Assembly (NCBI GenBank): GCA_964016885.1
Contig: CAXHJY010001743.1
Location: 1 to 64,000, forward strand
DNA: 64,000 bases
Reading direction: 5' to 3'
Origin: Eledone cirrhosa
Lineage: Eukaryota
Each line of letters starts with the position of its first letter. Position 1 is the stretch's first letter. The translations under genes and the position numbers were made by a program. Below, one piece after another: positions 53,552 through 54,330 of this stretch. A model generated the notes under the pieces. The model ran no database searches. It was not told where the DNA came from and saw only the letters and a list, made by a program, of their open reading frames with translations.

Positions 53552-54330
53552 ATAGTGAGTTAGAAACTCAGAGTAGTCGCTTAGAATTAAATAGCTCTAA
53601 GGAAAAGGCTTTTCCGAGCCATGTAATATAATTGAATAAACAAGAGAGATGAACACTAATATAAACATACATGTGTTCGAATCGTAAGGACTAGGTTAGC
53701 AATATGGTTTGTCAGACTTAATTTTAAGTAGTAAATTAAGAAAAATAACAGACCTATATCGGGCAATAGCCTGGTAACATCTAGACAGTTTTGAAAACTG
53801 TTTCGCAACATCTTATAAATTGAAGTCCACACTTTTCTCTGCTCCTCAGTAGTTGTTAAGAAATTAGCGATCCTTCCACTTCTAAAAATATTAGAAGACT
53901 GAATTGTGTGCGATATGAAATTGCGCACGTGTCTCCGGAAACCAGCTTGTCTGGAAATCCCATGCCCTTAAAAATAGCAGTCTGGTTAACTAGACATTAA
54001 AATTAGCTCTACATGATGGAGCCGACAAATATATAGTGAGTTAGAAACTCAGAGTAGTCTCTTACAGAACTATTTAATTTTAAGAGACTACTCTGAGTTT
54101 CTAACTTTCTTATATATATATATATATATATATATATATATATATATATATATATATATAATTGAATAAACAAGAGGGGTGAACACTGATATAAACATGC
54201 ATGTGTTCGAATCGTAAGGACCTTACGATTCGAACACGTGTATGTTTATATTAGTGTTCATCCCTCTTGTTTATTCAATTATATTGTACGGCTCGGAAAA
54301 GCCTTTTTCTTAGAGCTATTTAATTGTAAT
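53552..54330 (-). mobile_element. Family X second locus: 481-bp direct periodicity plus two fold-back segments
   Basis: AGTGAGTTAGAAACTCAGAGTAGTC at 53554 and 54035; inverted repeats at 54038-54106 and 54158-54284; homologous to 47133-47870. Confidence 0.78.
53776..53857 (-). ncRNA. Type I hammerhead ribozyme with intact catalytic core
   Basis: AACAACTA-CTGAGGA-GCA..TGC-GAAA-CAGTTT.TCA.AAACTG-TC-TAGATGTT; stem I 7/8 bp, stem III 6 bp plus the core A-U pair, GUC triplet. Confidence 0.85.

Follow-up and report, generated by a model that had tools for sequence, protein, structure and literature searches.

A non-coding repeat of about 500 bases with a hammerhead-ribozyme motif, represented at one locus by decayed copies, lies in TA microsatellites throughout the Eledone cirrhosa genome

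Classical hammerhead repeats are transcribed, carry a type-I hammerhead in every unit and have mainly been described as tandem satellites or SINE-like elements; the unit of one of them, pDo500 of cave crickets, is about 500 bp long. Newt satellite 2, Sm-alpha of Schistosoma and pDo500 are the classical cases (PMC7229834, excerpts). According to excerpts of the same paper, the LTR retrozymes of plants possess type-III hammerheads, LTRs, a primer-binding site, a polypurine tract, 4-bp target duplications and Gypsy helpers, and the non-LTR retrozymes of animals are AT-rich tandem repeats of roughly 150-450 bp with a type-I hammerhead and circular RNA expression (Cervera and de la Pena, 2020; PMC7229834). 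Animal repeats with type-I hammerheads reside alongside Penelope-like elements (PLEs) and have been proposed, in those excerpts, to be non-autonomous elements that PLEs mobilise (PMC7229834). Excerpts of a recent preprint give a range of 51-972 bp for retrozyme families, many of them monomers or dimers, and report homology to PLE termini in Xenopus (Li, Clavereau and Pollet, 2026; 10.64898/2026.07.22.740005). Phylogeny supports the view of animal type-I hammerhead repeats as non-autonomous elements of PLEs (PMC7229834; 10.64898/2026.07.22.740005). The hallmarks of PLEs themselves, as excerpted, are partial tandems, adjacent inverted 5'-truncated copies and a preference for (TA)n (Craig et al., 2021; PMC8557442).

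Here we set against these systems a locus from Eledone cirrhosa, analysed in a window of 64,000 nucleotides (the whole stretch of DNA under study). The locus consists of decayed copies of a non-coding repeat of about 500 bases that bears a hammerhead-ribozyme motif and is found in TA microsatellites genome-wide. Two families of the repeat, F1 and F2, occur in the window and are about 71-72% identical over their alignable parts. The F2 locus is laid out as follows.

53427..53551, no strand: compound (TA)n/(CA)n/(TA)n microsatellite that borders the full F2 unit on its 3' side
53552..54032, minus strand: full F2 unit of 481 nt, matching itself at 100% and full-length copies from other contigs at 85-89%
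54033..54064, minus strand: upstream 5'-truncated partial F2 unit of 32 nt (unit positions 450-481), head-to-tail with the full unit
54066..54106, plus strand: inverted partial copy of 41 nt (unit positions 435-475) on the 5' side of the insertion
54111..54160, no strand: (TA)n run separating the two insertions, likely the target microsatellite
54156..54221, minus strand: second, short insertion (unit positions 342-407), ending at the alternative 3' site B and adjoining (TA)n
54221..54329, plus strand: inverted copy of the second insertion (unit positions 344-452), followed by a short TA run

On its 3' side the full unit stops at position 53552, termed site A, where it adjoins the (TA)n run on its left. 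The first-pass annotation had proposed a periodicity of 481 bp, and the repeat spacing is indeed 481; the locus is one unit plus a stub and no tandem array. The stretch 54033-54330 is no second tandem unit and comprises the partial copy, the inverted copy, (TA)n and the second short insertion. Two hairpins result from this arrangement, one between 54066-54106 and 54033-54064 and one in which 54221-54329 opposes 54156-54221 as a palindrome with 66-nt arms. Sub-threshold miRNA-like and other Rfam matches at 54028-54308 were rejected as hairpins arising from the inverted copies.

The usual unit of the family is 502-510 nt, the window copy being short by about 26 nt. No open reading frame of at least 110 aa was found inside 53552-54330, and ARAGORN found no tRNA module. 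GC content is 0.356 and 0.370 in the units of the two families, which fold somewhat better than shuffled sequences (z of -2.2 and -3.2). Three sequencing runs (contigs, one sample, seemingly DNA) contain many diverged copies and the head-to-tail joint 54032->53552; their summed depth peaks just upstream of site B, although contig depth does not equal copy number. The F2 copies in the window are old and dead: the full unit shares 85-89% identity with its relatives and contains a single hammerhead.

The surroundings are themselves repetitive. The whole window has an extreme density of TA, CA, GA and CATA microsatellites, and the majority of the long frames free of stop codons are repeats in translation. 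Immediately to the left of the microsatellite, 53089-53384 is a near-perfect palindrome of two 143-nt arms, 96% complementary and 10 nt apart; its arm belongs to another young dispersed repeat, with 296 first-look candidates that are 94-99% identical and usually present in one orientation. Beside the F1 locus, a further palindrome (47990-48135) is centred on a (TA)n run. The window also holds LINE-type open frames, one of 643 aa with RVT_1 and C-terminal C2H2 fingers, two with zf-RVT and one endonuclease fragment, at these positions.

50995-52926, minus strand: LINE-type open frame
59196-60686, plus strand: LINE-type open frame
6574-7278, plus strand: LINE-type open frame
42736-43125, minus strand: LINE-type open frame

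Compared at the DNA level, F1 and F2 appear to fit the animal non-LTR retrozymes on every testable feature and are likely to be fairly ordinary members of this known class. Like those elements they are non-coding, AT-rich and a few hundred bases long, carry one type-I hammerhead per unit, join head to tail, are dispersed in monomer and dimer forms and share their genome with hammerhead-bearing PLEs. Their unit of about 490-510 nt exceeds the 150-450 nt typical of animal retrozymes but lies inside the 51-972 bp given in the excerpts of the 2026 preprint. Compared by description, they resemble the classical hammerhead repeats in being repetitive with a type-I hammerhead, and pDo500 in unit length. 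With plant LTR retrozymes, thought to move via circular RNA, they have in common a non-autonomous nature and the possession of hammerheads, whereas none of the plant features listed above was seen in F1 or F2.

The hammerhead that had been proposed at the F2 locus was borne out, the type-I core CUGAGGA/GAAA/GUC being complete in the window copy. Its parts are given below in the order of the minus strand.

53776..53857, minus strand: type-I hammerhead motif (unit positions 176-257), from a descriptor scan and covariation
53857-53850, minus strand: helix I, 5' strand, 8 nt
53849-53843, minus strand: CUGAGGA core
53842-53805, minus strand: helix II segment of 38 nt, closed by GCA/UGC
53804-53802, minus strand: GAA
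53801-53785, minus strand: helix III, 7 pairs and a 3-nt loop
53784, minus strand: C17
53783-53776, minus strand: helix I, 3' strand

This layout agrees with the cleavage position predicted earlier, between 53784 and 53783. With a descriptor that demanded the core, three pairs at the base of helix II, helix III and no fewer than 6 of the 8 pairs of helix I, one hammerhead was retrieved in the window and none in 200 dinucleotide shuffles. Helix I of the window copy contains one A-A mismatch, at a pair that is A-U in 29 of the 33 F2 copies aligned. At the gathering score Rfam returned no hammerhead in the whole window, and none at either locus at E values up to 10; the long helix II is the likely cause of this miss. 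The conserved GCA/UGC base of helix II, which never covaries, closes a segment of 30-32 nt that is paired further in F1 and poorly in F2, where only 3-4 pairs enclose some 30 irregular nucleotides, an unusually long helix II. A helix II of about 38 nt and a helix III of 5-7 bp distinguish F1 and F2 from the animal non-LTR retrozymes. In single-sequence folding the hammerhead fold is less stable than the minimum-energy fold by several kcal/mol. The 96-nt stretch from the window is no more stable than its shuffles (z of +0.99).

The F1 locus repeats the layout of the F2 locus, and the two stop, as the first-pass annotation had it, at a homologous position adjoining (AT)n.

47087..47866, plus strand: F1 locus, comprising an inverted stub, a partial unit and a unit ending in (AT)n
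47087-47134: F1 inverted copy; the partial unit starts at 47132, and the last unit ends at site A, 47866, adjoining (AT)n
47609-47686, plus strand: F1 hammerhead with a GGAA core defect

A first look at the 3.0 Gb genome produced 1940 candidates for F2 and 2505 for F1, from which the best 40 per family, lying on many contigs, were scored. The samples described below are therefore the best 30-40 matches to the window copies and not a random draw. For the hammerhead, 66 non-identical regions (33 F1 and 33 F2) were aligned and their pairs counted on a hand-written hammerhead structure; 94.7% of 1159 cells were paired, versus 25-38% when the partner was slid by 1-3 columns. Compensatory changes in the stems, claimed at first sight from the two window copies, recurred in this larger set, 6 of 18 pairs differing on both sides between F1 and F2 (five in helix I, one in helix III). 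All six reflect essentially the one split between the families and so represent six double substitutions, not many independent events. RNAalifold, run on the 66-copy alignment, returned 0 consensus pairs.

A fully canonical core is present in 17 of the 33 F2 copies and 3 of the 33 F1 copies. N7, which in hammerheads is the single unconstrained position of the core, holds G, U or A depending on the sub-lineage. The earlier statement that the core is kept holds for the F2 copy in the window and fails for the 47.6-kb copy, which has GGAA where GAAA is required, and for the partial copy at 47.17 kb, which lacks one A there. The same A-to-G change at core position A13 (alignment column 65, GAAA to GGAA) recurs in 6 of 33 F2 and 7 of 33 F1 copies, including the one at 47.6 kb, and could be explained by descent within one sub-lineage, by a hot spot of mutation or by editing of the template RNA. 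Because helices I and III remain complementary through six double changes at about 71-72% identity, with core variation at N7, the alignment supports selection on the hammerhead structure.

To describe how the repeat inserts, we tabulated the junctions of 60 loci, 30 per family. The 3' ends proved to be fixed and not random: 53 of 60 fall at one of two sites, A or B (27 of 30 in F2, 26 of 30 in F1). In F2, 16 copies end at site A (480/481), 11 at site B (407/408) and 3 elsewhere; the corresponding F1 counts are 14 at 488/489, 12 at 408 and 4 elsewhere. In 25 of 30 F2 and 22 of 30 F1 loci (47 of 60), six or more nucleotides of alternating A and T open the 3' flank. The first-pass annotation had suggested priming at a fixed, internal TA-like site beside a (TA)n target, a proposal that the junctions support except in its number of sites, which is two and not one. 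Both sites are themselves short alternating A/T runs, yet the F2 unit has two further runs of this kind and the F1 reference four, at which no copy ends, so that TA-likeness alone does not select the site and something further must.

The 5' side follows its own pattern. Starts are scattered across the unit, head-to-tail junctions are present in most of the 60 loci, and an inverted partial copy lies on the 5' side in 31 of them (14 of 30 F2, 17 of 30 F1). The order is constant: an optional inverted 5' copy, a 5'-truncated partial unit, a unit with the fixed end, and (AT)n. Three of the 30 F1 insertions (L031, L036 and L040) start within 12 nt of one another, at F1 positions 153-165 on the 5' border of the hammerhead, where the reverse transcriptase may pause or switch. 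It is common for copies that stop at site B to start in the preceding unit, past site A, and those that stop at site A contain site B; neither site can therefore mark where the template ends, and the template would have to exceed one unit in length or be circular. Where an insertion holds a segment twice, the two versions resemble each other more than the versions of that segment from different loci do in 15 of 19 cases. Of the four exceptions, one (L044) sets pieces against each other that do not overlap, and without it the means are about 94.9% and 93.0%.

The 80 scored candidates included no array above about 1.85 units, the copies measuring 1.0-1.85 units, and in this shortness they depart from the tandem arrays of animal non-LTR retrozymes. 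This distribution bears on a reading in which the locus is satellite or foldback DNA, produced by unequal crossing-over, TA-repeat slippage or a DNA transposon, and the hammerhead-like motif is fortuitous. Palindromes and TA microsatellites are prone to recombination and the motif went unrecognised by Rfam, as such a reading would have it. Thousands of dispersed short copies with fixed 3' ends and graded 5' truncation, the want of long arrays, the motif and stems found in none of 200 shuffles, and the six compensatory pairs all argue otherwise, and we regard this reading as barely credible.

The pattern of insertion is matched by a PLE that resides in the same window, with remnants at the following positions.

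12965..16145, minus strand: decayed PLE of an abundant family, its 3' end at 12965 in (AT)n
15771-16145, minus strand: reverse-transcriptase-like ORF piece of this PLE, read by eye, with no Pfam match
13426-13851, minus strand: GIY-YIG-type ORF of this PLE
near 13170-13229, minus strand: compact hammerhead of this PLE, about 200 nt downstream of the GIY-YIG ORF
29367-29744, minus strand: second GIY-YIG-type ORF fragment, another PLE remnant (Pfam E of 2e-4, just under the cut-off)

The family yields 34,028 first-look candidates, with open frames of up to 995 aa among the scored copies; one frame of 641 aa that was read through contains reverse-transcriptase and endonuclease parts. Among 32 hits, its 3' UTR ends at two fixed sites (13 and 15 hits), with 2 more one base short of the second, and (AT)n follows 26 of the 28 ends at the two main sites. 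Its 3' UTR copies are younger than the repeat copies, with a mean pairwise identity of 0.969 versus 0.929 and 0.914. Other PLE families are also present, as hits with 52-57% amino-acid identity, and the Protein Atlas placed the GIY-YIG ORF in unnamed eukaryotic clusters and in no PLE clade.

F1 and F2 resemble the endonuclease PLEs with pseudo-LTRs in their partial tandems, inverted 5'-truncated copies, 5' truncation, (TA)n bias and a hammerhead near the 3' end (PMC8557442, excerpts), and the resident PLE shows the same two-site 3' ends. They differ in encoding nothing and in sharing no detectable sequence with the sampled PLE flanks; the hammerhead of the resident PLE, moreover, is of the compact minimal type, its helix III having 2 bp. 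A blastn comparison of the F1 and F2 units with flanking sequence from 30 members of one PLE family gave no significant match (best E of 0.003 over 37 nt), and tblastn of the 641-aa frame against 60 repeat loci gave scattered PLE fragments nearby and no consistent adjacency. Since no sequence is shared with the PLE flanks, we infer the helper from its behaviour and do not identify it by sequence; that it is this particular PLE family is accordingly put forward as a candidate assignment. (TA)n targeting, fixed alternative 3' ends and inverted 5' copies are not described for retrozymes in the excerpts of PMC7229834 and 10.64898/2026.07.22.740005, and a full-text literature search found no paper that describes insertion of retrozymes into microsatellites.

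A genome-wide search with the Rfam model Hammerhead_1 (RF00163) gave 74 scored matches, 18 of them over threshold. The 12 of these 18 that were inspected (for example L091-L102, around position 1501) have a compact 45-nt type-I motif and belong to a different repeat, dissimilar to F1 and F2. At one compact Hammerhead_1 locus, PLE-like sequence lies about 500 nt upstream.

The LINE-type frames at 50995-52926 and 59196-60686 raise the question of whether the repeat is instead a SINE-like element mobilised by a LINE and not by a PLE. The repeat has no poly(A) or LINE-type tail, however; its insertions cross the unit boundary, and its inverted 5' copies overlap the direct copy, which is the PLE pattern (PMC8557442, excerpts). 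The (TA)n target and the two termini are, besides, matched by the resident PLE. We consider mobilisation by a LINE very improbable.

The reading that we hold to be probable is that the repeat is a retrozyme spread with PLE enzymes, that is, a PLE-dependent retrozyme. The locus holds two insertions of a non-coding repeat of 480-510 nt, which would have been made by PLE reverse transcription, the cDNA being predicted to start where either of two fixed TA-like sites in the RNA pairs with a nicked (TA)n. In the retrozyme model, a transcript that contains two ribozymes would cut itself, a monomer would be ligated into a circle, and the PLE enzyme would copy this RNA circle round and round. To a circular RNA template for the F1 and F2 copies we give somewhat less than an even chance. 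That the ribozyme actually cleaves is likewise inferred.

The question of cleavage is sharpened by the composition of F1. Its dominant lineage has the core CAGAAGA in place of CUGAAGA (U4 to A), in 27 of the 33 sampled copies and in 99 of the first 100 listed of 187 exact F1 pattern matches. By analogy with a saturation study in which mutants of the CUGA turn had low activity (PMC9901934, excerpts), this mutation is expected to cripple cleavage. The U4 and A4 groups nevertheless appear equally old, with within-group identities of 0.924 and 0.917, and the A4 lineage retains its stems, the innermost pair of helix I having passed from A-U, as in the U4 copies, to G-C. The U4-to-A lineage is no less abundant, so that cleavage may be dispensable; that a lineage whose ribozyme is apparently defective has succeeded also sets F1 apart from the animal non-LTR retrozymes. 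Nor is there a sign in the copies that templates were ever cut, since all 66 aligned copies cross the cleavage site without an indel or scar and, in the 60 loci, no 5' end lies within 5 nt of it. The first-pass annotation had held that the structure was selected for cleavage: selection on the structure is supported, whereas selection for cleavage is not shown and is partly contradicted by the dominance of CAGAAGA in F1.

These observations give weight to an account in which the element is the same PLE-dependent retroelement but its hammerhead is a relic or a structural signal, and movement occurs without self-cleavage or circular RNA. The template would then be a linear read-through of a tandem copy, or the enzyme would jump between RNA ends, as is assumed for the pseudo-LTRs of coding PLEs. 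The prevalence of U4 to A, the low activity of CUGA-turn mutants and the seamless cleavage site in 66 of 66 copies all point this way. So do two features of PLEs: the coding PLE has the same dual termini, making a circle unneeded, and PLE clades that lack hammerheads proliferate well, such that hammerheads may merely parasitise PLEs (PMC8557442, excerpts). Against it, the stems keep covarying, including the change from A-U to G-C within the U4-to-A lineage itself, which indicates a continuing constraint on the three-way junction, and F2 retains the full core with variation only at N7. The greater likeness of duplicates within an insertion (15 of 19) fits one unit copied twice, and a linear parent would be shortened by 5' truncation in each generation. 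On balance we find a relic hammerhead doubtful, though a serious contender.

In a further account, Penelope-type reverse transcriptases would start the cDNA internally, at two UAUAU-like sites of a circular or concatemeric RNA, by the same rule for the PLE and for its riders, and pseudo-LTRs would be a by-product of passing the start; the three-way junction would be kept for a role other than cleavage, such as template folding or recognition by the enzyme. The last component is suggested because the U4-to-A lineage has spread as well as the intact one. Taken as a whole, we rate this account as distinctly unlikely.

Returning to the PLE-dependent retrozyme that we favour, the element is, as a kind of discovery, ordinary. 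PLE integration is an unsolved problem, both in the origin of partial tandems and inverted copies and in the preference for microsatellites, and the case for animal retrozymes riding on PLEs rests mostly on co-occurrence and on homology of termini. The genome of E. cirrhosa provides a clean natural data set for both, in which two putative retrozyme families and a coding PLE have a common (TA)n target and each stops precisely at either of two alternative 3' sites. A ribozyme-intact lineage can be compared with an apparently ribozyme-defective one within a single genome. The point at which the enzyme starts and the need for cleavage thereby become directly testable questions.
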